From a virus (Duplodnaviria > Caudoviricetes): DNA of 39,867 bases. Both the position numbers and the translations under genes were made by a program. Position 1 is the first letter of the stretch. Each line of letters starts with the position of its first letter. Of the stretch, positions 1 to 39,867 are shown in pieces. The DNA is taken from positions 1-39,867 of the IMG/VR virus record IMGVR_UViG_3300022909_000052, one strand, 5' to 3'. Under the pieces are notes generated by a model, which worked only from the letters and a program-made list of their open reading frames with translations, did not search any database and was not told the DNA's origin.

Positions 1-250
1 ACAAAGTACTAGGCAAGGATCACTGTTGGAAATGTTTCAAGAATTGGAGACACGGATATGGCAAATAGACTAGAAGTATATGACGAAGATGGCAAGCTTA
101 TCGTCTGGTATATGGACAATAATCAAAGGACTATTGACAATTATATGTCAGGTCTAAAGGCTGTCAATAATAAACTAAAGTTCAAGGTCGTAGAAAATGT
201 GGGGTAATACCATAGAACAGTTCTTGTTTATCATGTTTCAGTATGATAAG
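1..250 (+). repeat. 250-bp terminal direct repeat, copy 1 (likely assembly overlap)
   Basis: Matches 39618-39867 except T/C at 123/39740 and 168/39785; cuts through ORFs. Confidence 0.95.
58..207 (+). CDS. Small early protein, 49 aa (MANRLEVYDEDG...), duplicated at 39675-39824
   Basis: GGAGA SD at 46-50; both differences between the copies are synonymous AAT/AAC. Confidence 0.75.
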   Translation: MANRLEVYDEDGKLIVWYMDNNQRTIDNYMSGLKAVNNKLKFKVVENVG

Positions 251-2259: not shown

Positions 2260-2467
2260 TTACATGGCAACACTTGCAGGTATCTTGTACTGTCTAGGTA
2301 TATACCTGCACTTCATCCACGTACACACAGTGTTCTATCTACTAGAGAAAGAAGAGGATATGAACAGAAACAGGACACTATTACATAGTATTGTGTGGCC
2401 TTGGACAGTTGTCCAGTTTATCTGGTTCGATATATTCGGAGATGAAAATGACCTTGAAGACAGATAA
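2249..2467 (+). CDS. Small membrane protein
   Basis: Two hydrophobic segments; ATG 2249 overlaps the helicase end. Confidence 0.65.
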   Translation: MTFDYMATLAGILYCLGIYLHFIHVHTVFYLLEKEEDMNRNRTLLHSIVWPWTVVQFIWFDIFGDENDLEDR

Positions 2468-3362
2468 GATCGTAGCAATGGACATAGAAACTGATAGCTT
2501 AGATGCTACGTTTATATGGGTCATATGCGCAGAGGATGTGGAGACAGGTGAACGTGAACGTTTCCTTAACACCACAACAATACCAGAAGAGAGGGAAAGA
2601 TTTATTGCTTACTGTAGTGGAGTTGATAAGTTTGTGTTTCACAATGGGATTGGCTTCGATGTTCCTGTGATCAACCGTTTACTTGGAAACATCATTGATC
2701 AACAGTCTGTCATTGACACATTGATTGTGTCTAGGTTGGTAGACTATACACTAGATGGTAAAGGCCACAGTCTAAAGGCATGGGGTAAACGCCTTGGTGA
2801 TTTCAAGATCGGGTTCAATGACTTTAGTAAACTGTCAGATGAAATGATAGAGTACTGCGAACAGGACGTTGCTGTTACTGTCAAGTTATATAGACACTTT
2901 AAGAAAGTCATACAAGATCCTGAATGGCAAGAGTCTTTACGCTGTGAGCATGACATCCAAATCCTATGCGAACAGATGACAGCGAACGGATTCTATTTCG
3001 AAGAGGACAAAGCAGAGGAATTATTAGGTGAGATATGTGAAAGAATGGAAGCTCTTGAAGCAAGTTTTCAAGAAGACTTCCCACCCAAACTTACAGAAGT
3101 CAATCGTATCCAGTACCGAAGGAAAGCAGATGGTAGTTTATTCTCTTCTGTCATCAAGGCAAGAGAGAAATATTATTCAACGTCTCTAGATAAATCTGTT
3201 GAACCTAACGAGCTTGTATGTTATGACTACATACCATTCAATCCAGCCTCACCTAAGCAGCGCATAGATAGACTATGGGAAGCAGGTTGGGAGCCATTCG
3301 AAAAGACAAAAGGACACATCGACTATGAGCGAGAATCAATTAAAACTTTTCGAAGAACTTGA
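2448..3362 (+). CDS. polA: DNA polymerase family A, N-terminal part (3'-5' exonuclease and start of thumb)
   Basis: ExoI DIETD, ExoII HNGIGFD, ExoIII YCEQDV, FNPAS motif; GGAG SD favours ATG 2448. Confidence 0.9.
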   Translation: MTLKTDKIVAMDIETDSLDATFIWVICAEDVETGERERFLNTTTIPEERERFIAYCSGVDKFVFHNGIGFDVPVINRLLGNIIDQQSVIDTLIVSRLVDYTLDGKGHSLKAWGKRLGDFKIGFNDFSKLSDEMIEYCEQDVAVTVKLYRHFKKVIQDPEWQESLRCEHDIQILCEQMTANGFYFEEDKAEELLGEICERMEALEASFQEDFPPKLTEVNRIQYRRKADGSLFSSVIKAREKYYSTSLDKSVEPNELVCYDYIPFNPASPKQRIDRLWEAGWEPFEKTKGHIDYERESIKTFRRT

Positions 3363-3723
3363 AGATATACCAGAAGGCGACACTCAGGTTTGTAAGATAT
3401 GTCAAAAAGAAAAACACGTAAGTCTTTTCTATAAACATATTCATTACAAAACAGGGTTAGACAGTAGGTGTAAGGCTTGTAAAAAGAAAACAACCGATGT
3501 TACAGAAGACTTAAAGAAAAGGTTTGCGCACCTAAGGACAGAGTTGTGTGATTGCTGTGGTGAAGTATCAGACAAAACTTTAGTTGTTGACCATTGCCAC
3601 GACACCCTAAAGTTTAGGGGTTGGATTTGTCAAGAGTGTAATCACGGTATTGGTAAGTTAGGAGACAATCTTACTGGTGTTTTAAATGCGGTAAGATACT
3701 TAGAGAGGTTCGAAAATGGATGA
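3325..3723 (+). CDS. Endonuclease VII-type (His-Me finger) putative homing endonuclease inside polA
   Basis: CxxC pairs, LVVDHCHDT..FRGWICQECNHGIG..GD motif; overlaps both polA halves. Confidence 0.9.
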   Translation: MSENQLKLFEELEDIPEGDTQVCKICQKEKHVSLFYKHIHYKTGLDSRCKACKKKTTDVTEDLKKRFAHLRTELCDCCGEVSDKTLVVDHCHDTLKFRGWICQECNHGIGKLGDNLTGVLNAVRYLERFENG

Positions 3724-4732
3724 AAGAAAACAAAAGTTTGATACCTATGGATGGACACTATCCGAGGCAAACCTTAGCACACTGCCTGAGACAGCCCCTA
3801 CAGGCGGTAAACGTCTGGCCGAGTGGTTGACCCTTGAAGGACGACGTTCCTCACTGGTGGAGTGGCTAGGCCACGTTAAGGAAGACAAGCGTATTCATGG
3901 TAGCTTTAGTCACATCGGTGCATGGACAGGTCGCATGGCCCACCGCAATCCTAACCAAGCTAACATTCCGTCTGAGTTTCATGGTGAACCTAAGACAGAA
4001 GTAGAGAAGGTGAAGGCCAAGTATGACGGTCAGTTCCGTGCACTATGGTCTGCCCCTTTAGGTTCATGGTTAGTAGGTACAGATGCTGAGGGTATCCAGC
4101 TACGTGTACTTGCACATCTCATGCGTTCAGAAGAGTACGTTCATGCTATTGTGTCAGGTAAGAAAGAGGACGAGACAGACATCCATAACCTGAACCGTAA
4201 GGCTTTAGGTATGTCACACATCACACGTGACATGGCTAAGACATTCATCTATGCCTTCCTACTAGGTGCAGGTAATGCTAAGATTGCACAGATACTAAAG
4301 GTCAACCAACGAGAAGCAGGTCAGGCCGTAGAGAACTTCATGGAATCTATTGAGGGTTTATCTAAACTAAAGAAGCAACGCATACCGGAGATTGCCAAAC
4401 GTGGTTGTTTCAAAGGTCTGGATGGACGACGTGTTAAAGTACCAAGTCAACACAAGACATTGGCTGGTATGCTACAGAATGGTGAGGCAGTCATCATGAA
4501 ACATGCAGCACTTCAATGGACTTATCGTGCTAAACGTCAGTGGATTGACTACAAGCTAGTGACATGGCCGCATGACGAATGGCAAACAGAAGTTACTGGC
4601 AGTAAACGTGACGCAGAATTACTAGGTGAGATCCAGCGTGAGTCTATCGTTGACACAGGTAAGAAGTTTGATATGATCTGCCCACTAGCTGGATCAACTG
4701 ACATCGGCAAGAACTGGAGAGACACACACTAA
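3716..4732 (+). CDS. polA: DNA polymerase family A, C-terminal polymerase part
   Basis: TGRM..PNQANIP, motif A DAEGIQLR, motif B RDMAKTFIYAFLLG, motif C HDE; own SD GAGAGG at 3703-3708. Confidence 0.93.
   Translation: MDERKQKFDTYGWTLSEANLSTLPETAPTGGKRLAEWLTLEGRRSSLVEWLGHVKEDKRIHGSFSHIGAWTGRMAHRNPNQANIPSEFHGEPKTEVEKVKAKYDGQFRALWSAPLGSWLVGTDAEGIQLRVLAHLMRSEEYVHAIVSGKKEDETDIHNLNRKALGMSHITRDMAKTFIYAFLLGAGNAKIAQILKVNQREAGQAVENFMESIEGLSKLKKQRIPEIAKRGCFKGLDGRRVKVPSQHKTLAGMLQNGEAVIMKHAALQWTYRAKRQWIDYKLVTWPHDEWQTEVTGSKRDAELLGEIQRESIVDTGKKFDMICPLAGSTDIGKNWRDTH
4650..4677 (+). promoter_or_regulatory. sigma70-type promoter within the 3' end of polA
   Basis: TTGACA-N16-TATGAT with an extended -10 TG. 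Confidence 0.55.
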
Positions 4733-11419: not shown

Positions 11420-11653
11420 CTAACGGTGATCCCTTAGTGACTGCTCTATGCTGTCAAGCTTGTTGAAGATAGCCTTGATAGTTTCCTTCATCTCTTTCAT
11501 CTCTCTATCGTGAGAGACCCTAGAGGAATCTAACTGAGCCTTAAGCACAGCCACATCGGTTGCAGTTTTATTTGCTGTGTTAAATAAATACCAGACAACG
11601 ACGACGATAGGGGCCACGAGCCACTGCATTACGAGGTCAATAGTTTCCATCAT
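11420..11653 (-). CDS. N-terminal transmembrane plus coiled-coil protein, holin-like candidate
   Basis: WLVAPIVVVVWYLF then heptad pattern. Confidence 0.75.
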   Translation of the reverse strand: MMETIDLVMQWLVAPIVVVVWYLFNTANKTATDVAVLKAQLDSSRVSHDREMKEMKETIKAIFNKLDSIEQSLRDHR

Positions 11654-12987
11654 TGTTCGGGTCTTACCTTGGGTCTTGGTGATTTTTCTGGTGCGTATGT
11701 GTATAGATCACTTACATTACCCAAGCTGATATTACTCCTACGTCCTGTACTAAACTGTTTAATAAGATCTTCATTCTCATAACCACGACTACCTAGCAAG
11801 AAACCAATACTACGTGCGGATGAATACCCAAGACCATGCTTTTTTATAGTCTTGTATATAAGTTCATCCATAGTGCCTAACTCACCAGCATTAAATGCTT
11901 CTTCAAACTCGTCAGCTGTGTACTTTTTTTCAGTTACAGGATGGTACCATTCATTGTAATCAAACATATCTGTGATTTTTATCTCACCATTCTCATCAGT
12001 AGAGATACTAAAAGAACCTAAGATAAGCTTAACCTCGTCAGCTGGGTTTCTTTCCGCTAGGCTTTTAATGATATCCTCTTTAGACGCACCACCTTTTGTC
12101 TGATTTACCTTGACACCAGAGCCTTCTTTTGTAAGGTAGTTATACACTTCTTCTTTTTCAAATGAAACAGTTTGGTTAGGTCCTTTAAGACCCTTATCCC
12201 TAGCCATCTTTTTAAGGAAGTCTATAGTTGTAGGCGTGAAGTAATCCTCGGTAATAGGTTCTTGTTCTACTTCTTTAAGATCTACTGTATAGAACTCTCC
12301 AGTGTATGGGTCAAACCTTTCACCTTTGTATAATGACACGTGTATAATGTCATTGATGAAGTTCTGTGCGACAGGTGACGTGAATGTTTTGGCATAATTA
12401 CTAAGTGTTACAGCGGCGGCAGCTACATCAGCTGGTGCGTTCTTAGCACCCTCTGTAATAGCCTGTGATGTAAACTTAAGGTCCTCTATTATTTTCTCTT
12501 TAGTTGGTAGTGCATCATACGCAGCTTTACTTAGACGTTTAATACCTTTGGCAGCATCAGAGGCAAGATCAGAACCTACCTCAACTGCCTTACCACCTAC
12601 ATCCTGAGCAAACTCAAGTGCTTGTTCACCCATACCTTGAACTGTATCCATGACAAAACCAGCTGGATCAATAGCCTGTGCCGTTGTATCCTGTATAACC
12701 TGACCTGCAGTTTGTGCAGCTTGTCCTACATCCTGTGCTACGTTACTAACTGCCTGTCCTACGTCTTGCGCAGCACCTGCGACAGCCTCACCACCCTCAA
12801 GCATAAGGCCTTGAGCTTTAATTAAACCCTGTTTAAATAAACTATTTGTCTCAGCTACAGATCTGCTTGCGCTACTAATTGCAGCCTGAATCTCTGGGCT
12901 GTACTCGTCTAATGCTGCAGCTACAGGTGAGGTAGCCTTGCTTATAAAACCTACAGTATTAAAGTCTCTTAAGAAATCAACAGACAT
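11650..12987 (-). CDS. 445-aa protein: Ala/Gln-rich helical stalk plus C-terminal domain with a colicin-M-like motif
   Basis: Long ORF is secure; function is inferred from the DMFDYNEWYH motif only. Confidence 0.7.
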   Translation of the reverse strand: MSVDFLRDFNTVGFISKATSPVAAALDEYSPEIQAAISSASRSVAETNSLFKQGLIKAQGLMLEGGEAVAGAAQDVGQAVSNVAQDVGQAAQTAGQVIQDTTAQAIDPAGFVMDTVQGMGEQALEFAQDVGGKAVEVGSDLASDAAKGIKRLSKAAYDALPTKEKIIEDLKFTSQAITEGAKNAPADVAAAAVTLSNYAKTFTSPVAQNFINDIIHVSLYKGERFDPYTGEFYTVDLKEVEQEPITEDYFTPTTIDFLKKMARDKGLKGPNQTVSFEKEEVYNYLTKEGSGVKVNQTKGGASKEDIIKSLAERNPADEVKLILGSFSISTDENGEIKITDMFDYNEWYHPVTEKKYTADEFEEAFNAGELGTMDELIYKTIKKHGLGYSSARSIGFLLGSRGYENEDLIKQFSTGRRSNISLGNVSDLYTYAPEKSPRPKVRPEQ

Positions 12988-12991
12988 ATTA

Positions 12992-13243
12992 TTACCACTT
13001 CACCTTATCAGCCCAGTAAGCTGCAGACATCTTACCCTTTTTAATATTCTTGGCATGTCGTGCCTTGAATGCTTTGTTACGAGCAGATCCTTTAGGACTA
13101 CCCTTCACACCCTGTTGTCCAAAACGAATGATCTTCTCTTTACCATCAGCACATGCCTTGACAACATGTGATTTGGTAGGATGATCAGGTGTACTCTTAG
13201 GTGAGTTACACTTCATTTTAGATTTGTCTAAACGTTTAGCCAC
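12992..13243 (-). CDS. Small basic protein (FKARH...SAAYWADKVKW)
   Basis: GTG start overlapping the spanin stop; resembles small basic proteins of marine phages. Confidence 0.8.
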   Translation of the reverse strand: MAKRLDKSKMKCNSPKSTPDHPTKSHVVKACADGKEKIIRFGQQGVKGSPKGSARNKAFKARHAKNIKKGKMSAAYWADKVKW

Positions 13244-13595
13244 GGTACCGCCCTAATGTTATTGTCTTTAGTAGGCCCACCCAGATTTCCTTAGGTGAGG
13301 GAAGAACCCAGCCTAGGACAAGAAGAAGTATGACCCACATAGGTATGTCTTGGTTCAGAACTTTGACACTATCAACCTCACCACCAAGACTAAAGTTACC
13401 AGAAGACTGATTGACACTAACGTTTTCACCTGAGATATCACGGCTCTGGTCAACAGCTGACTGGTTGTTTTCCTTACCAGCCTGTACATTAGCATTAAGA
13501 GTAGGGCCACTACTACCTCCTGACAGTAGGGATAGAGGGTTGAGACACCCTGACAGAGCCACTAGTAAAGCTAAGGTTAGGTATAGTTTCTTCAT
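13236..13595 (-). CDS. Unimolecular spanin (T1 gp11-like)
   Basis: Signal peptide with lipobox LSG-C, polar periplasmic stretch, C-terminal TMD IPMWVILLLVLGWVLPSP. Confidence 0.85.
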   Translation of the reverse strand: MKKLYLTLALLVALSGCLNPLSLLSGGSSGPTLNANVQAGKENNQSAVDQSRDISGENVSVNQSSGNFSLGGEVDSVKVLNQDIPMWVILLLVLGWVLPSPKEIWVGLLKTITLGRYRG

Positions 13596-13619: not shown

Positions 13620-14453
13620 TTAATTAGGGTTTATATCTGTTGGTCCGTCACCACGGTAGTTTATTTCTTGTACAGATCCACCCATGCTAGGTTGTGAACC
13701 ACCCTTGAATGACTGTAGTTCTCCAATTATACCATCCAATTCTTGGTCTGTCAAATAATTAAATCCAGTCCAAGTCTCTTTTAATTTTTGTCTAGCCATA
13801 GTTGGGTCTGCAATACTCTGTAACGCAGACAAAGACTGGTTGAAGATCTGGTCTGTTTCGTTTTGTTGTGCAGAAGGTAAGGAAGAACCTAGGTTTGATA
13901 GAATAAGATTACCAAATGTCAATTCGTCCGTGAATGTTTTAGACACAGCACCTCTGTCTTGTCTACCCTTCTTTGTTACACCATGTGGTGCTACAAGTCT
14001 TGCTGACAAATTACCAAAGGCATTTGTATAAAGCTTAGAAAACTCAGCTATGTTTTCATTGATGATCTTTTCCATCTGTGCGTCTTGAGTGAAGAAGGGT
14101 TCAGCATGTATCGTATTTCTAACACCCCTTTTATTTTCACTTCTAGTCTTGACACCCCTGTTCCTGTAGCCTGAGTATCCATGCTTTGCTGCAAAGTCTA
14201 CAACAAGTTGGTTAAATCTTTCGGCAGCTTGACGAACCTCTGGTCCTGCGTTGTCTGGGATAATAACCTCTGTACCACGACCACCCTCAGTGGAGTTAAA
14301 GTCCATAGAGATATTATACATATCAGCTGTAGGTGCAAATTCGGCACGTGTACCTTGAGATATAGTCAAAGCCATAGGCTCAGACTGTTCCGAAACTTTC
14401 TTGACAGCTATAACTCCAGCCCGACGGAACTCACTTAAGAAATTCTCTGCCAT
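13620..14453 (-). CDS. Putative N-acetylmuramoyl-L-alanine amidase (Amidase_3 motifs in permuted order)
   Basis: ISMDFN..GGRGTEV, RGVK, HAEPFF, then PHG..DRGAV..E; start reassigned to ATG 14453 (SD AGGTAGG, just after the upstream stop). Confidence 0.7.
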   Translation of the reverse strand: MAENFLSEFRRAGVIAVKKVSEQSEPMALTISQGTRAEFAPTADMYNISMDFNSTEGGRGTEVIIPDNAGPEVRQAAERFNQLVVDFAAKHGYSGYRNRGVKTRSENKRGVRNTIHAEPFFTQDAQMEKIINENIAEFSKLYTNAFGNLSARLVAPHGVTKKGRQDRGAVSKTFTDELTFGNLILSNLGSSLPSAQQNETDQIFNQSLSALQSIADPTMARQKLKETWTGFNYLTDQELDGIIGELQSFKGGSQPSMGGSVQEINYRGDGPTDINPN

Positions 14454-14457
14454 TAGC

Positions 14458-16461
14458 CTACCTTTTGAAAACGATGAGGTTGCCTGTTGAGTCGGTACCA
14501 CCATCACCAGTGTAAACAAAGTGATCGCCACGAGGTAACGCAAGTACTTCCTCCTGTGTTGCCACTTGATGTGGGTTTGTTTGTGACCCTAGTTTAGACG
14601 CAGAGTCTACGACTATTTCTTGGGTCTGTTCTATTATTACTTGACTAATAACTTCGCTAACACCCTCTTTAATCTGAGAGTCTCGGAATGACTGAGTAGC
14701 TTGAGGGTACTTTTCTTCTAAGGCTTGAAGGCCACTTAGCTTCTTATCAATCAGTTTAAGGTTCTTAGACAGCCTGAACACCTCACCCATGTTAGACAAG
14801 AACACACGCTCTAGATTACTACCACCTAAGATCTCTGACCGACGTTTATCTGTAAGATTAAAGAAAGCCTCAAGCCCACCAACATCTTGGATACGTTTGT
14901 TTACCTCACGAAGCTCTTTAATTCTGCGATCACCTTGTGGTACATTCTTAAAGCGTTTTTCAAAGGTTGTTACGTTTAGTGTGAGAACACCTGTCTCAGG
15001 ATCAATGACAAGATTCTGGCCCTCAGGTGTGTCTGTGTTAGCAAGCTTAGAGTTTAGTAAGTTTTCTTGACGAATACGTTCAGAAGACAAAGCCTCTTGA
15101 ATAGCATTGTTTGTCTGCGCCGCATTAATGTCGTCTGTCTGGTAGATTGCCTCTAGAATAGGTACCATGCTTGCTGGTATATACTGGTTAAGAAGTTTGT
15201 CACCCAGCAAGAAAGAGTCAGATTGTGAAGCAATAAGACTTGAGGTGACATTCATGGTGTTTAGCCATGAGTTACGTACCGCTTCATTCTCACGGACAGC
15301 CTTAGGTGATGCAGCTGCAGCCACTTGACTGAAACCAGAGACAGCTTTCTGATACGCATCTGGATTCTCTTGAACTTTCGGGATATCAAATAAAGCAGGG
15401 TTGCCACCTGTCTGAGTTGGTGTTGTATTTGGTGGGCTGTTGAAGATATTCTCAAGCTTCATCTCAGGTGACTTAGCGTCCCATACTTCTACTAGGGCAT
15501 CAACAAAAGTTTTACCTTTCTCTCCCTTAGGGTCAAGCTTATCTCTAATGATTTGCTCAAACTTTTCAGGGTTTGTTTTAATAAGAGAACGTACTGTTCC
15601 TATTGTTGCTGGATTAAACCCTGATGTTTGTAAAGCTATTTGAACAGCATCTAATTGAACATCAATGGGGTCTACTGACACACCTTTTCCGATGTCATCA
15701 ATAAGACCAAACATCTGATCCTGTACTGACTTAACTTCTAGGTTGTTATTAAAGTTTGCGTACTTAGTTGAAACCAAAGCCCGTACAGAAGTAGATGCAG
15801 ATAGAAACTCTTCTCTTGTTATAATACCGTCTGCCTGAAACTCTGCAATTTTAGTTGCTAGGGTATTGAAATCGTTTTGAATAGCTTGGACGATAGGTGT
15901 TGAGTTTACAGGAAGACCCGCGGAAGCTTTAGCATTCTCAAGTTGAACACTTTGTTCATGTAAAGCTGTCTCTGAGATTCGACGAATAACTTCACTCTCT
16001 ACTTCCTCGTTTGTAAATGAAGGGTTCTGTGCCTTAACACCAAGACGCAAGCTTCTACCCAATTCACTAGACAGAGTTTGTTGTTTTATAAAGTCTTCTT
16101 CGCTATCGTAAGAGGATGCCTCAAAGGATACACCAGTAACAGCTTGATAGTCTGCCTGAACATAGTCTGGTATTGCTTTAAGTCCTACCCCTTTTAAGGC
16201 AATTAAGGCTTTATCTGCTTCTACTTTAATCTTACCTGCAGAAACACCCTGTTCCTTCATGTCTTTCAATCGTTCTATTTCTCGGTTAAACCCAGCAATA
16301 GCCGAAGATTCCACAGAACCTTGAGATGCAGTCTTAGCGTTAGCCTTTAGGAAATTAGAGGCTAGGTCTGCAACATCACCAAGAGGATTATAAGCACGTG
16401 GTGCCTGTACTGGCTGTTCGAAGCCTATTTGTGTGTCAAGAGTAGGACTAAATACTGACAT
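14458..16461 (-). CDS. Probable internal virion (ejection) protein
   Basis: 667-aa helical protein in the internal-protein block; inferred from position. Confidence 0.65.
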   Translation of the reverse strand: MSVFSPTLDTQIGFEQPVQAPRAYNPLGDVADLASNFLKANAKTASQGSVESSAIAGFNREIERLKDMKEQGVSAGKIKVEADKALIALKGVGLKAIPDYVQADYQAVTGVSFEASSYDSEEDFIKQQTLSSELGRSLRLGVKAQNPSFTNEEVESEVIRRISETALHEQSVQLENAKASAGLPVNSTPIVQAIQNDFNTLATKIAEFQADGIITREEFLSASTSVRALVSTKYANFNNNLEVKSVQDQMFGLIDDIGKGVSVDPIDVQLDAVQIALQTSGFNPATIGTVRSLIKTNPEKFEQIIRDKLDPKGEKGKTFVDALVEVWDAKSPEMKLENIFNSPPNTTPTQTGGNPALFDIPKVQENPDAYQKAVSGFSQVAAAASPKAVRENEAVRNSWLNTMNVTSSLIASQSDSFLLGDKLLNQYIPASMVPILEAIYQTDDINAAQTNNAIQEALSSERIRQENLLNSKLANTDTPEGQNLVIDPETGVLTLNVTTFEKRFKNVPQGDRRIKELREVNKRIQDVGGLEAFFNLTDKRRSEILGGSNLERVFLSNMGEVFRLSKNLKLIDKKLSGLQALEEKYPQATQSFRDSQIKEGVSEVISQVIIEQTQEIVVDSASKLGSQTNPHQVATQEEVLALPRGDHFVYTGDGGTDSTGNLIVFKR

Positions 16462-16465
16462 AAGT

Positions 16466-19400
16466 TTACCTTGTTATGTTGAGTAAGGATTCTGCTTCTG
16501 TGTCAAGACCCATTGTACGTAGTTTATCAACACGTTCAAATGTAGTTGTATCAGAGAAGCCTTGCATTACTTGTTTTTGAAGTTTACCCCTTAACTCAGG
16601 AGGTAGTCCTGTCATACGGCTGACAGAAAGTTCGATGCTTGTAAGTATTTCGTTTGCTTTTTCCGCATCTCTCTCATTGATAGCATCCCAGAATAGATTT
16701 ATCCTGTTGTCAATCTCTTTAGAGTACTCACGGTACACCTTTTGATTGTTATAGATTATATCATCAGCATCGTAGAGTGTTTGAACTTCCTCAAGAGGGA
16801 TACCAACGGCAGCAAAGATACCATCCATCGTAGTAAAGTTAGCATCAAAACGTTTACCAGACTTTGATGAATAGATCTGGTTCTGTATAATTCCTTTTGC
16901 TTTAGCTAGGTTGTCGATGAACTTAAAGTTTCTAAATAACTCTAGTGTTCTCTCTCCTATTAGGATCTCGTCGCCACGAGCAATAGACCCTAGTATCTGA
17001 GCAAAGTCTACAAGTGTTGAACCAGCCTTACCGCCACCAGCACCACCTATAATCTCAAAGACATTGGCATCACGATAATGACGGAAGGTATCAATGACAC
17101 CATCACCTAGGGACAGACGACTGGCTGCGGATACTTCTGGTGCAATATCGCCAAACAGTTTATCATCAGCCCAAGCAAACAGAGCATCAACAGGTCCGTT
17201 CTTAATAAGACGGTGTACATCCCCACCAGACTCCAGTTGAAGACTATCAGGAAGATAGCTGTTCATTGCGTCTAATGCTGCAGATGAACCATTACCTAAG
17301 CCTACCCCAGTCATTCCGAAGAATGGGCCAACCATAACAGCAAGCTTCATTCGTTCAGCTTTTGTAAGGTCCTTGCCGATAAAGATACCTTCGAATGACC
17401 GAAGCATATAGCTATAGAACTGCGTAGGTATACGCAATAAGCCTTGCTGAACGTCACCCTTACTCATATTTGTCATGTTGAGTGAATAGGCTTGTTCTTT
17501 GTTGATAACCCAAGCACGTCCCTCAGGACTTAGGATAGACAACTCAGGGTTCTGGGCCTTCCACTTACGAACGGCTGCACCAAAGGATGTTACGCGAGTA
17601 ATCTGTTCACCCTTATTGAAGAAGTACATACCAGCATTCATTGTTTTCTCCCAACCCCTGTTGAGAGTATTCATTGCTACACGTGTACCCTTCTCTCTAG
17701 CACGAGACAAAGAGTTTGTTGGTGCTTGAAAGCCTTCTGCAATGTTAGTCGGGTCTACTTCATACCTAGCTGAATCAATAAACAACTGACGGATCTCTGT
17801 CATTTCTTTCTTAGAGTATCCAAACTGTTTACCCATACGATCAAGCATGATGTCTAGTTCTTTACCGTCAAGCTTTAAGGACTTGAGCAGGTAGTTACCC
17901 ATGACAGCACCTTGAAGTCCGTCCTCAAGTCCAGCCATAGCTACAATGTTAATAGAGTGTGCAGACTGTAGAAGCATTTGGAACGGATCTGCAAAGAACG
18001 TAGTCTTAAACCCGTAGTTAGTTAGCAAGTGACTTGGGTTATCTACATTGAACTTTACGCCTCTTATATCATAGATAAGGTTTGATGCACTGTCAGCTAG
18101 ACGCTGCGCCCAGCGATCCCCAAAACCCTCTGCACCCATACGTAATTCTGTGATACGTTTTCTATCATGTAGTTTTCTGATGACAGGATCTGTTGTCTTG
18201 CTTACGTCAAGCCACTTTTCCATATCACGGTAGTACTTACGATAGTCTTTGCTTGAGCTATTCGGGTCTGCAATCTGCTTTACCTTCTTACCAAGAGATA
18301 CTTGGATAGCGTCGTTGTAATTACTAAAGGCTAAACGTCTGCTTTCAGTATTTACTTGGTTTAGAATAGCACCAATAGGGCTGTCGTTAGCTGTACCAAG
18401 GCCACCAAAGTGTGTCAAAGGTTTATCGTTACGACGATTGGAATAAATTGCAAACTCTGTTAGTGATGCGTTAGGTACAAAGGCATCATCATCAGAAATA
18501 GAGAACACACTTTCGTCACGATGTTTGCTTACAAACTTTAAATCATCTTTATCTAAGTAGATTTTAGATTCATCTAACCAAACATCAAACTCTTCTACTG
18601 TTGTTAGGCTTTTATTCCAGTCATTATTCTTTACAAGTAGGTCATCAGTTAAGACACCAGCTTTCTTTGCTAGATATAGTTTGTTCAGCTGATCTCTTGC
18701 TTTTGCTGCAGACTTACTGGAGCTTGCAGATAGAGCTACCTTCAACGGTTTGTTGTCTTTATCTAACAAGACAATGAAATCTGTAGCCTCAGGGTTTACA
18801 CGAGGACCACCTGCGTTATAACCTAAGACATCCTCAGGCTCAAGTGGACGTACTACACGTGTATCTACTACATACTGATTACCGCCAATGTCCATATCTG
18901 TTTTAAAGATATTTGCTATAGGGCCATCGTAATCATCACGTGTGAAACGAGCACCTGTCTGTGCATCAATAAACCATTTGACATCATCAGGTATCTTGTC
19001 TACCTTTTTGGCAGCTAGGTACGTATCTTCACCGCCAACCTTGACAACAATACGACGGTATCCATTAGCTTGCATTCTGCGAAGCATACTTGTAGCGCGT
19101 AGTTGGTATGTATGATCAGCTAAATCTACAAGAGCACGATAACCGTCAATAACTTTTTGAGATGGTTCTTGTCCTTGGTGCAATGCAGCCCAACGGTCAG
19201 CGAAATCATCATCAGTAAACCAGTTACGTTGAGATGCTAAGTCACCTGATTGTAGGTTTTTAATAATGTCTGATACGTCATCAATCTCACGAGCCGATAA
19301 CTTATTTATTTTATCTATGTACGGCTTACTTAACTGTCCAATACGTACAGCTGCAGACTCTGAACGATAGGCTAGGTTTGTTGCATCTGCGTTATCAATA

Positions 19401-20857
19401 AGGTGATAGCCTGTGGTGGGTAGTTTTTGAAATAACTTAGCAAACCACTTGCCTGTAACACCCTCAATCTTTAGAAGCTCTGCATACTTATTTGTTTTGA
19501 TAAAGTTATCCATAGGTACAACTTCAGAAACCTGTACGGCAAACCTGTTGTTACCCATTGGAACGATAGAAGCCTCTGGCATATCTTCGATATAACGTTC
19601 AGCTGCTTTCTTTGTCATTGGTTTACCTGTCTTGGGGTTACCAAATAACATAGTTAAACTGTTTTGCTCTTGATTTAACTTGATATCCATGACACCACGG
19701 TTTATCGACTGTGCGATATTATTAACCCGTGTAGTGATATAGGTATTAATCAAGTCAGTATCGTATATATCCCCGAGGAACCTACGGGTATACTCAAAGA
19801 CTTCTTGAGTAAGACGTGTTGCTGTATGGTTATTGGCTGCAGCACTGCCTAGTGGACGGACAGGTGCATTATCTGAGATAGGGTCAACAATACTCGGACC
19901 CATACTTGCTAGGTTTTCGGGGTCATCTGTCTTCTTGGCTATCTTCTCTGCTACGTCTGTGGCAGCTTCCGCACCATTAAGAGCACCAGCACGTGTAGCT
20001 GCAGTAGGCGACTTAGAGATATCGTTTAGTGCTTTAGCAATCTTACGGACTTCTGATACTTTCTTACCAGCCTTAACTGCTTTACCGCCAATACTGACGA
20101 CACCACCTGCAATAGGGAACAGATCAGTAGCCGCAAGAATTGCCTCAGCTACAGCAAGGTCATCGTTACCAAACTCTTCTATTGTTTGTAATAGTTCTGA
20201 GGCAGCAAATGGGTTGTCACTGAAAAGAATACCTTGGTTTAAGTACTCTTCTATCTTTGTATCAAGAAGAGTGTTGTATTCCTCAACAGACATGTTGCCA
20301 GCAATAGCTCGTGCAAACTCTTCTGAAACATTCTTACGTTTCATTCGTACTTGCTCAAAGGCACCAATAGGAAACTGTCGTAAAATGTAACGATCAAACC
20401 AGTTGATTACAGTACCTGCCCCTGTTTCAGCTGTGCGTTCTTGTATAGCGTCTGTTAGTTTTTCGACAGTCAGCTGGTATTTGATTGACGAAAGGTTAGC
20501 AGCTGCAGACAGAGTAGGGTTGTCCATAGCATGAAAGGAGTTATCAAAGTAATCTGTAAGACTAATAAGATCAGCACCCTTCTTGGCCTGATCCTCGATG
20601 TCCTCTGCAGCTTCTTCTACATCCTTTTCTTCTTCGATGTACTTACTGACAGAAGAAGCTAGGGCTGTATTAACTCTATTTGAAATATCAGTTACTGTTA
20701 GTTCGGTGTCCTCTGGCAACTCACCAGTGGCACCTAGTATAGCTGTATCCCTACGCTCAGTAGAAGCTGAACGAGGGTCCGCTGTTGTCTTAGGCTTTTG
20801 ATCTGGCTCGTCGCCTAAGATAGTAGCCTGACCATTCTGGTTGAGTATTGTTGCCAT
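16466..20857 (-). CDS. Large internal virion (ejection) protein
   Basis: 1463 aa; position after the tail tube, GNAT and gp14-like genes as in T7-like podoviruses. Confidence 0.7.
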   Translation of the reverse strand: MATILNQNGQATILGDEPDQKPKTTADPRSASTERRDTAILGATGELPEDTELTVTDISNRVNTALASSVSKYIEEEKDVEEAAEDIEDQAKKGADLISLTDYFDNSFHAMDNPTLSAAANLSSIKYQLTVEKLTDAIQERTAETGAGTVINWFDRYILRQFPIGAFEQVRMKRKNVSEEFARAIAGNMSVEEYNTLLDTKIEEYLNQGILFSDNPFAASELLQTIEEFGNDDLAVAEAILAATDLFPIAGGVVSIGGKAVKAGKKVSEVRKIAKALNDISKSPTAATRAGALNGAEAATDVAEKIAKKTDDPENLASMGPSIVDPISDNAPVRPLGSAAANNHTATRLTQEVFEYTRRFLGDIYDTDLINTYITTRVNNIAQSINRGVMDIKLNQEQNSLTMLFGNPKTGKPMTKKAAERYIEDMPEASIVPMGNNRFAVQVSEVVPMDNFIKTNKYAELLKIEGVTGKWFAKLFQKLPTTGYHLIDNADATNLAYRSESAAVRIGQLSKPYIDKINKLSAREIDDVSDIIKNLQSGDLASQRNWFTDDDFADRWAALHQGQEPSQKVIDGYRALVDLADHTYQLRATSMLRRMQANGYRRIVVKVGGEDTYLAAKKVDKIPDDVKWFIDAQTGARFTRDDYDGPIANIFKTDMDIGGNQYVVDTRVVRPLEPEDVLGYNAGGPRVNPEATDFIVLLDKDNKPLKVALSASSSKSAAKARDQLNKLYLAKKAGVLTDDLLVKNNDWNKSLTTVEEFDVWLDESKIYLDKDDLKFVSKHRDESVFSISDDDAFVPNASLTEFAIYSNRRNDKPLTHFGGLGTANDSPIGAILNQVNTESRRLAFSNYNDAIQVSLGKKVKQIADPNSSSKDYRKYYRDMEKWLDVSKTTDPVIRKLHDRKRITELRMGAEGFGDRWAQRLADSASNLIYDIRGVKFNVDNPSHLLTNYGFKTTFFADPFQMLLQSAHSINIVAMAGLEDGLQGAVMGNYLLKSLKLDGKELDIMLDRMGKQFGYSKKEMTEIRQLFIDSARYEVDPTNIAEGFQAPTNSLSRAREKGTRVAMNTLNRGWEKTMNAGMYFFNKGEQITRVTSFGAAVRKWKAQNPELSILSPEGRAWVINKEQAYSLNMTNMSKGDVQQGLLRIPTQFYSYMLRSFEGIFIGKDLTKAERMKLAVMVGPFFGMTGVGLGNGSSAALDAMNSYLPDSLQLESGGDVHRLIKNGPVDALFAWADDKLFGDIAPEVSAASRLSLGDGVIDTFRHYRDANVFEIIGGAGGGKAGSTLVDFAQILGSIARGDEILIGERTLELFRNFKFIDNLAKAKGIIQNQIYSSKSGKRFDANFTTMDGIFAAVGIPLEEVQTLYDADDIIYNNQKVYREYSKEIDNRINLFWDAINERDAEKANEILTSIELSVSRMTGLPPELRGKLQKQVMQGFSDTTTFERVDKLRTMGLDTEAESLLNITR

Positions 20858-25507: not shown

Positions 25508-25536
25508 ATTATATAGAAGAAAACATCTTTTGTCAA
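25508..25536 (-). promoter_or_regulatory. Consensus sigma70 promoter for tail and internal genes
   Basis: TTGACA-N17-TATAAT, exact. Confidence 0.85.
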
Positions 25537-37122: not shown

Positions 37123-37151
37123 TTGACAGGTCTTAAAAGAATGTGTATAAT
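37123..37151 (+). promoter_or_regulatory. Consensus sigma70 promoter, divergent from the late promoter
   Basis: TTGACA-N17-TATAAT, exact. Confidence 0.85.
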
Positions 37152-39483: not shown

Positions 39484-39685
39484 GTACTTCTTTAGAGTAT
39501 GCATAGGGTTGTCCGTCACACTGAACGCAATACTTGGCGGCCAACCTTATCAGACATTCAGCGCAAGAAACTACGTCTGGTATCTGAATGAAAAGAGAAA
39601 CCTTGTCTGGCTGATAGACAAAGTACTAGGCAAGGATCACTGTTGGAAATGTTTCAAGAATTGGAGACACGGATATGGCAAATAG
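39476..39685 (+). CDS. Hypothetical protein
   Basis: LNAILGG.P.QTFSAR...DHC pattern; coupled to neighbours. Confidence 0.75.
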   Translation: MLKYFFRVCIGLSVTLNAILGGQPYQTFSARNYVWYLNEKRNLVWLIDKVLGKDHCWKCFKNWRHGYGK

Positions 39686-39867
39686 ACTAGAAGTATATGA
39701 CGAAGATGGCAAGCTTATCGTCTGGTATATGGACAATAACCAAAGGACTATTGACAATTATATGTCAGGTCTAAAGGCTGTCAACAATAAACTAAAGTTC
39801 AAGGTCGTAGAAAATGTGGGGTAATACCATAGAACAGTTCTTGTTTATCATGTTTCAGTATGATAAG
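39618..39867 (+). repeat. 250-bp terminal direct repeat, copy 2
   Basis: Matches 1-250 with two mismatches. Confidence 0.95.

Follow-up and report, generated by a model that had tools for sequence, protein, structure and literature searches.

The locus analyzed here raises two connected questions: whether a gene lying between the internal virion protein genes and the spanin-like gene of a phage encodes a cell wall amidase whose chain order has been rearranged, and, if so, whether such an enzyme would serve the entry of the phage or the lysis of its host. A preliminary description of the window (the whole analyzed stretch of DNA, 39,867 bases) had proposed a circularly permuted Amidase_3 domain in which an Asp takes the place of a His metal ligand, and had predicted that ordinary HMM searches would score it poorly.

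The phage genome and the gene slot

The phage record is a whole genome with 250-base terminal repeats, and its gene content and order agree with those of cobaviruses (Pfam, PHROGs and comparison with cultured cobaviruses). Genes for primase/helicase, DNA polymerase, ThyX, MazG and a B12-type ribonucleotide reductase occupy one arm of the genome; terminase, portal, capsid, tail tubes, an acetyltransferase and internal virion proteins are encoded in the other. The source is a complete cobavirus-like marine phage. The gene under study, whose product we call P0001 and of which 99% identical copies occur in two further viral contigs, sits between a 667-aa gene, itself placed after an IVP-D-like gene, and the gene for a spanin-like lipoprotein. 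The features of this region, and the ends of the record, are as follows.

1-250 and 39618-39867: direct terminal repeats, 99% identical; the record is classed as linear though complete
13236..13595, minus strand: unimolecular spanin-like lipoprotein of 119 aa, the downstream neighbour, 58% identical to the annotated spanin of ICBM1
13620..14453, minus strand: predicted amidase gene (P0001), 277 aa, with a short leader, the predicted permuted amidase domain and a helical tail module
13704..13871, minus strand: residues 195-250, the helical module, with homology to the C-terminus of the lysozyme-like slot proteins of ICBM1, SIO1 and CRP-4
13726..13754, minus strand: perfect sigma-70 consensus TTGACA-17-TATAAT within the 3' end of the amidase gene, pointing at the spanin gene
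14458..16461, minus strand: the 667-aa upstream neighbour in the IVP-C-like position, by synteny with cultured cobaviruses
16466..20857, minus strand: IVP-D-like gene, 1463 aa, matching phrog_12003 (E 2e-13) and, by tblastn, the annotated IVP-D of ICBM1 and ICBM2

The 119-aa protein has a lipobox and a C-terminal hydrophobic stretch. The 667-aa gene matches no family in Pfam or PHROGs, and its likeness to IVP-C is one of position.

In cultured cobaviruses the gene right after the IVP-C-like gene encodes a wall hydrolase of another type in all six cases: lysozyme-like in ICBM1 (gp36), SIO1 (gp24), CRP-4 (gp37) and P12053L (gp40), Amidase_2 in ICBM2 (gp34) and SLT in CRP-5 (gp37) (PMC6775973). 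The amidase gene resembles these slot genes in being flanked by the IVP-C-like gene and the spanin side. However, its catalytic domain is unrelated to theirs, none of the six being homologous to the amidase domain. What it has in common with the slot proteins of ICBM1, SIO1 and CRP-4 is the C-terminal helical module, which in the model is separate from the amidase domain (pLDDT 83-92). A profile of this module, built from nine proteins and run against 1028 proteins, matched the slot proteins of ICBM1, CRP-4 and SIO1 at their C-termini (E 1.5e-6 to 1.8e-6; next match 0.068), and hhalign gave E 2.7e-7. On the simplest reading, a lysozyme-like gene appears to have had its catalytic part exchanged in place for an amidase domain, with the C-terminal helices of the lysozyme left attached. 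The full P0001 model also matched a 226-aa protein of ICBM3 (Foldseek probability 0.98, E 0.06), which is assigned to the ICBM3 slot gene by its matching length only.

At window 14454-14487, the frame of the amidase continues upstream without a stop for 30 codons, through the end of the 667-aa gene, and in all eight junctions viewed the gap from stop to start is 1, 4 or 13 bases, that is, in the same frame. A programmed +1 frameshift fusing the 667-aa gene to the amidase gene, as in the fusion-like arrangement of locus L008, was considered unnecessary and dropped, because codon-wise movement of start and stop together with an embedded ribosome-binding site explains the same-frame gaps.

Several other observations concern the same genome. 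Perfect TTGACA-N16/17-TATAAT sites number six against 0.05 expected (window 140-167, 471-498, 13726-13754, 25508-25536, 37123-37151 and 39757-39784); two are copies within the terminal repeats, and another, located after the capsid gene, points towards the genes for tail and internal virion proteins. The site inside the amidase gene is not conserved in other cobaviruses and is kept only in the two near-identical contigs. The DNA polymerase is present as two ORFs (2391-3362 and 3716-4732; window 2391-4732) with an endonuclease VII ORF (3325-3723) in between. A short motif (L/I-P-x-G-x-x-F-x-x-P-x-D-G...K) ends the IVP-C-like proteins; its carriers are the end of the protein at window 16461, L007:7615, L007:8606, ICBM1 gp37, CRP-4 gp38 and P12053L gp41, and four amidase-family proteins end in the same type of motif, which is possibly a packaging or ejection signal. 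Finally, window 11650-12987 encodes a 445-aa protein without a family, weakly matching CRP-4 gp36. Its N-terminus resembles the start of P0001. Relatives of its C-terminal half occur in L007 and, as parts of the amidase-bearing proteins, in L009-L012 and L023, and its C-terminal SPRPKVRPE motif is also found in the ICBM2 and CRP-5 slot proteins. It is possibly another virion protein.

Fold and chain order of the amidase domain

Numbered from the ATG at 14453, the translation contains ISMDFNSTEGGRGTEV (D51), RGVK (99-102) and IHAEPFF (H116, E118), and only after E118 the motifs LVAPHG (H157), DRGAV (166-170) and TDE (E177), as had been described. The order in which the motifs had been drawn is right, whereas the gaps given as two dots are in fact 3 and 7 residues long. 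The span first delimited, 14366-13890, covers residues 30-188, and a near-invariant His two residues before E118, H116, was absent from that account. The elements of the domain are listed here, with CD27L as the canonical reference.

14004..14369, minus strand: residues 29-150, from canonical beta2 to the final helix, which in the usual order make up the C-terminal three quarters (VIA-align, hhalign)
13884..14003, minus strand: residues 151-190, strand, PHG loop, DRGA and E-helix, predicted to be the canonical N-terminal beta1-loop-alpha1 relocated to the end (hhalign, secondary structure of the model)
14301..14303, minus strand: D51, third zinc ligand position (CD27L H84), predicted ligand (profile alignment, conservation)
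14106..14108, minus strand: H116, family-specific His, predicted second-shell or pocket residue (conservation)
14100..14102, minus strand: E118, catalytic Glu position (CD27L E144; conservation, profile alignment)
13983..13985, minus strand: H157, first zinc ligand position (CD27L H9; conservation, profile alignment)
13923..13925, minus strand: E177, second zinc ligand position (CD27L E26; conservation, profile alignment)

The proposed circular permutation of Amidase_3 is backed by the structure model, by structure searches and by profile-profile alignment. First, the 163-residue amidase domain is modelled with a pLDDT of 95.6 and a pTM of 0.91 as an alpha/beta fold with a central, mostly parallel sheet, as in Amidase_3. 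When the model was compared by VIA-align with 48,161 chains, the top 14 matches were all Amidase_3-type amidases (Z 8.7-5.2, rmsd 2.6-3.3 A); the best of them aligned 113 residues of the predicted model at rmsd 2.6 A with Z 8.7, a value that is middling by the tool's own note. All 14 alignments end at model residue 121-123, and five of them begin at chain residue 41-54, past the canonical first strand and helix. Some (3czx, 7agl, 7tj4) begin at the canonical N-terminus, because a sequential aligner can pair the first strand of the model with either strand. The part of the model left over by these matches consists of a strand, the PHG loop, DRGA and the helix starting at E177. LigB-type folds aligned over the whole model at Z 5.0. 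Foldseek gave no PDB match at E<=0.001 for the amidase-domain model; CD27L came top at E 0.005, most of the amidase matches covered about 105-115 aligned columns, and wall hydrolases stood at the top in the viral library. Amidase_3 clusters of the ESM Atlas scored 0.85-0.88, under its own lead threshold of 0.9, and are not counted as support. PHROGs returned a single weak endolysin match (residues 48-104, E 0.0025), and two sequence searches of the PDB gave nothing useful, one yielding two weak ribosomal L1 matches judged to be chance and the other no match.

Secondly, profiles recover the order of the chain. The canonical Amidase_3 profile was made from 16 phage amidases; a CD27L homologue search had returned 120 near-identical clostridial proteins, of which only 2 entered this set. 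By hhalign, residues 29-150 align to canonical positions 63-172 at E 7e-9. In native order the profile-profile score is 55.5 over 101 columns, and a second alignment puts the C-terminal block on canonical positions 4-33. Taken alone, that block aligns to positions 4-33 with E 0.0012 and a score of 19.4, just above 30 column shuffles (maximum 18.4, mean 9.6). Re-ordering the profile at residue 151 raised the score to 65.5 over 140 columns, the highest among 19 cut points, against at most 59.0 in 30 shuffled-block controls, and paired H157 with H9 of CD27L, E177 with E26, D51 with H84 and E118 with E144. The canonical HMM likewise matches relatives in two swapped pieces, for example positions 75-171 and then 9-63 in L057.

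It had also been expected that the re-permuted sequence would score better against Amidase_3. At the profile level this is what we found, but single sequences behaved differently: with the 16-sequence canonical HMM, P0001 scored 20.9 bits in native and 21.2 bits in re-ordered form, which is no gain, and over 67 sequences the mean gain was 0.37 against 0.45 for shuffled blocks. Likely causes would be the near-absence of canonical alpha2, seen in the profile alignment, and the small reference HMM.

Taken together, we are highly confident that the domain is a circularly permuted Amidase_3. In this arrangement the chain would be cut between canonical alpha1 and beta2, with a short linker (about residues 147-150) connecting the original termini. 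The path of the chain would then run through beta2, beta3 (with D51), beta4, a long helix, beta5, beta6 (with E118) and the last helices, after which it would supply beta1 (H157) and alpha1 (E177), with most of alpha2 lost. That loss may open the cleft. The four catalytic positions would converge on a single metal site, as the alignment and the one compact modelled domain suggest.

Compared with known Amidase_3 endolysins and autolysins (PF01520; CD27L 3qay, PlyPSA 1xov, 3czx, CwlV 1jwq and AmiP 7b3n), the domain shares the predicted fold over about 110 residues (rmsd 2.6-3.0 A), the positions of His, Glu, catalytic Glu and Asn, and the motifs GH..D.GA..E, G.EV, RG.K and E.FF. It differs in that beta1-loop-alpha1 is C-terminal, the third ligand position is Asp, a His stands two residues before the catalytic Glu and alpha2 is largely missing, and also in lying mostly within long virion proteins and below the Pfam cut-off. 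In our reading the domain descends from Amidase_3 and would work like it, but it departs from that family in chain order, in ligand and in score.

Family conservation and the predicted zinc site

A word-indexed search gave 48 proteins, and a profile run against 1.84 billion representatives gave 254 clusters (50% identity) at E<=0.001, 182 of them at E<=1e-10, of which the best 150 were examined; a more diverse profile added 37 further proteins. At least 75% of the domain is held by 216 of 223 proteins, the other 7 being fragments that were excluded from the counts. Among the 216 full domains, E118 and H157 are kept in all, G168 in 215, D51 and N53 in 214 each, E177 in 213 (with 3 gaps) and H116 in 209 (Tyr in 7), while identity to the query falls to 26% among 67 representatives chosen at <60% identity. 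D166 is variable (147/180). This upkeep across homologous domains means that the motif residues are more than chance. The order D51, E118, H157, E177, swapped relative to the canonical beta1(His)-alpha1(Glu)-beta3(His)-beta6(Glu), is found in all full members. None of the 216 has His at position 51, which agrees with the earlier assignment of Asp to the third ligand position, and none has a second copy of the domain. No relative in normal order with the Asp/His motif and no tandem duplication intermediate was seen among the 223 proteins, in which the 254 clusters are represented by their best 150.

The expectation of poor HMM scores proved correct. Neither P0001 nor its parts matched Pfam Amidase_3 (PF01520, gathering cut-off 27 bits), and a single one of 186 homologues passes the cut-off (P0110, 28.4 bits, over profile positions 53-157 of 174 only). 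Among 50,697 phage records a single cultured carrier was found, Roseobacter phage CRP-2, an HMO-2011-type phage (PMC6918029), whose gp48 (QBQ72524.1) is annotated as a hypothetical protein. Its domain is 69% identical to that of P0001 with all key residues, and its database model superposes on the P0001 model with a TM-score of 0.98. CRP-2 gp48 differs in having an acidic low-complexity leader and no tail module. A search of genome contigs yielded 2 loci from 56 candidates, one of which (L067) spans only residues 9-82. In the other (L066:2406-13313, a Sulfitobacter genome) a 698-aa gene with the domain belongs to a small integrated element that also encodes an integrase and a DnaB helicase; the genes after it, of 870, 196 and 170 aa, have no family. 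This element could be a phage satellite with virion-type proteins. P0002, a close homologue of P0001, has an extra C-terminal domain (residues 280-437) with no PHROG match at E<=0.001 and none among the Pfam matches listed.

Amidase_3 enzymes hold zinc through two His and one Glu and use a further catalytic Glu (PMC9929850, PMC3852659); in AmiP the first His binds zinc via N-epsilon2 and the third ligand, also a His, via N-delta1 (PMC9929850). In place of the two-His-one-Glu set the present domain has H157 and E177 together with an Asp at the third position, and the canonical catalytic Glu at the end of beta6 is present as E118. In the canonical set the third ligand is His in 16/16, and the position two residues before the catalytic Glu is Leu or Ile in 16/16. 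We propose that zinc would be held by H157, E177 and D51, that E118 would activate the water attacking the MurNAc-L-Ala amide, that N53 may aid substrate binding, and that H116 may support D51 or line the peptide pocket. The change from His to Asp would be geometrically mild at this site, since an Asp oxygen can take the position of the third-ligand N-delta1. H116 was also considered as the true third ligand. This is disfavoured by the seven natural H116Y variants, all of which keep D51, E118, H157 and E177, and which thereby favour D51 as ligand and H116 as helper.

The absence of the canonical His could of course be taken to mean that the domain is a catalytically dead wall-binding or structural derivative of an amidase, or that the C-terminal block is an unrelated add-on and no displaced beta1-alpha1 at all. 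The lack of gain in single-sequence re-ordering and the sequential alignment of LigB-like folds over the whole model at Z 5 point the same way. However, exactly the four predicted catalytic residues are near-invariant down to the most divergent representatives, and the C-terminal block fits the canonical GH...D.GA...E block in register, so that we regard this explanation as highly improbable. Instead, the company that the domain keeps suggests wall activity: 17 of 186 homologues carry PG_binding_1 or LysM, a further 11 carry SLT, Hydrolase_2, phage lysozyme, M15 or VanY domains, and from these fusions to wall-binding or lytic domains (28/186), together with the gene slot, we infer that the domain is very likely an active wall hydrolase. 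It is probably a MurNAc-L-Ala amidase.

A different chemistry within the permuted fold deserves consideration here, in which D51 and H116 would form a different or two-metal site and the enzyme would cut another wall bond (as an endopeptidase or deacetylase) or another envelope polymer. Two coupled active-site changes, His to Asp and Leu/Ile to His, run through the family, and dinuclear peptidases of the same superfamily have Asp at the third-ligand position. Most of alpha2, which lines the canonical cleft (PMC9929850), is lost, and the 11 members that stand beside another muralytic domain would suit a complementary activity. Against this, H116 is not a needed ligand, since seven members with intact D51, E118, H157 and E177 have Tyr there; canonical phage amidases share N53 and the E-P-F-F motif; and D166, a possible bridging residue, is variable. 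We therefore consider a changed chemistry quite unlikely, and retain the amidase assignment.

Entry or lysis

The gene had been named the best candidate for a missing lysin or an entry enzyme, and it is indeed the sole wall-hydrolase candidate among the 39 scanned ORFs of this genome (Pfam, PHROGs), in which a divergent lysin could be missed. An entry enzyme is favoured over an endolysin. Members of at least 500 aa make up 116 of the 216. The domain is encoded beside the internal-virion block here and inside long virion-block proteins in L008, L013, L020, L029 and L046. In L046, L029 and L013 it comes after the tail-tube genes, and in the first two of these a neighbouring gene matches an internal-virion family; in L020 it comes after a DNA ejection gene, as part of a protein that matches phrog_2534 ('released from the phage upon infection'); and in L028 it is in one protein with a baseplate-hub/tail-lysozyme match. 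The neighbours in L032 and CRP-2 gave no match to a named family. Two carrier records, G013 and G015, encode a separate lysozyme. In L008 the domain is within a 947-aa gene that comes after the IVP-D-like gene; since tblastn (E<1e-4) gave no match between this protein and the one of 667 aa, a fusion with a protein of that type is a matter of position only. According to previous work (PMC4819975), phages of this group have their IVP-C homologue downstream of IVP-D, and muralytic domains have been reported on homologues of IVP-C. Our results resemble these podovirus cases in that an auxiliary wall-cutting domain is carried on or beside an IVP-C-like protein; the domains described there include glycosidases, transglycosylases and a D,D-endopeptidase, and the word 'amidase' does not appear in the main text of that report.

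The same permuted active amidase might, however, be the endolysin of a holin-endolysin-spanin system, or act in both lysis and entry. Its gene is directly upstream of the spanin gene, with small membrane-protein genes next, no other lysin was found in the complete genome, and P0001 is free-standing, without a signal or membrane segment. The slot is labelled endolysin in PMC6775973, although that label appears to be based on genome annotation and the slot adjoins the virion block too. Among 20 carrier records, 16 gave no match to four Pfam lysin families (the GH108 search having no positive control, as it matched nothing, control records included) and only 3 have a separate lysin; a PF08291 match in G009 was rejected as a separate lysin, the 656-aa frame being probably the amidase-bearing protein itself. 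Most family members, on the other hand, are long proteins in virion gene blocks, the perfect (though not conserved) promoter within the gene's 3' end could allow separate expression of the spanin side, and a sister protein in L007 shares its type of C-terminal motif with the upstream virion protein. We thus see the endolysin role as a possible but less probable alternative. Our best explanation, on balance the one that we would adopt, is a permuted Amidase_3, likely active as a zinc-dependent amidase on peptidoglycan, which the virion probably carries to open the wall at DNA entry.

In the open-access literature we found neither a circularly permuted Amidase_3 nor an Amidase_3 with an Asp ligand; supplementary annotation tables for cobaviruses and RCA phages could bear on novelty. 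Naturally permuted NlpC/P60 enzymes (PMC6403190, PMC12994826) are a precedent for permutation in a superfamily of wall hydrolases, and the permuted branch there changed its substrate, but their fold and chemistry are unrelated to those of the present domain. It is conceivable, if unlikely, that the family is a subfamily of entry enzymes, widespread among phages, whose active site was rebuilt along with the permutation (His/Glu/Asp with an extra His and an open cleft), giving a new bond specificity or a two-metal mechanism. If so, cobaviruses as well as HMO-2011-type, P22-like and contractile-tailed phages would have in it a hidden module for opening the wall, one that comes and goes among their ejected proteins.

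In conclusion, because the family escapes Pfam almost entirely, it points to a candidate enzyme in marine phages with no apparent wall hydrolase, among them the cultured CRP-2 (gp48). With this family, nature provides a setting in which to test His/Glu/Asp zinc chemistry within a well-studied fold, and its cobavirus gene slot would be a clear case of one catalytic domain swapped for another with a remnant of the old enzyme retained.
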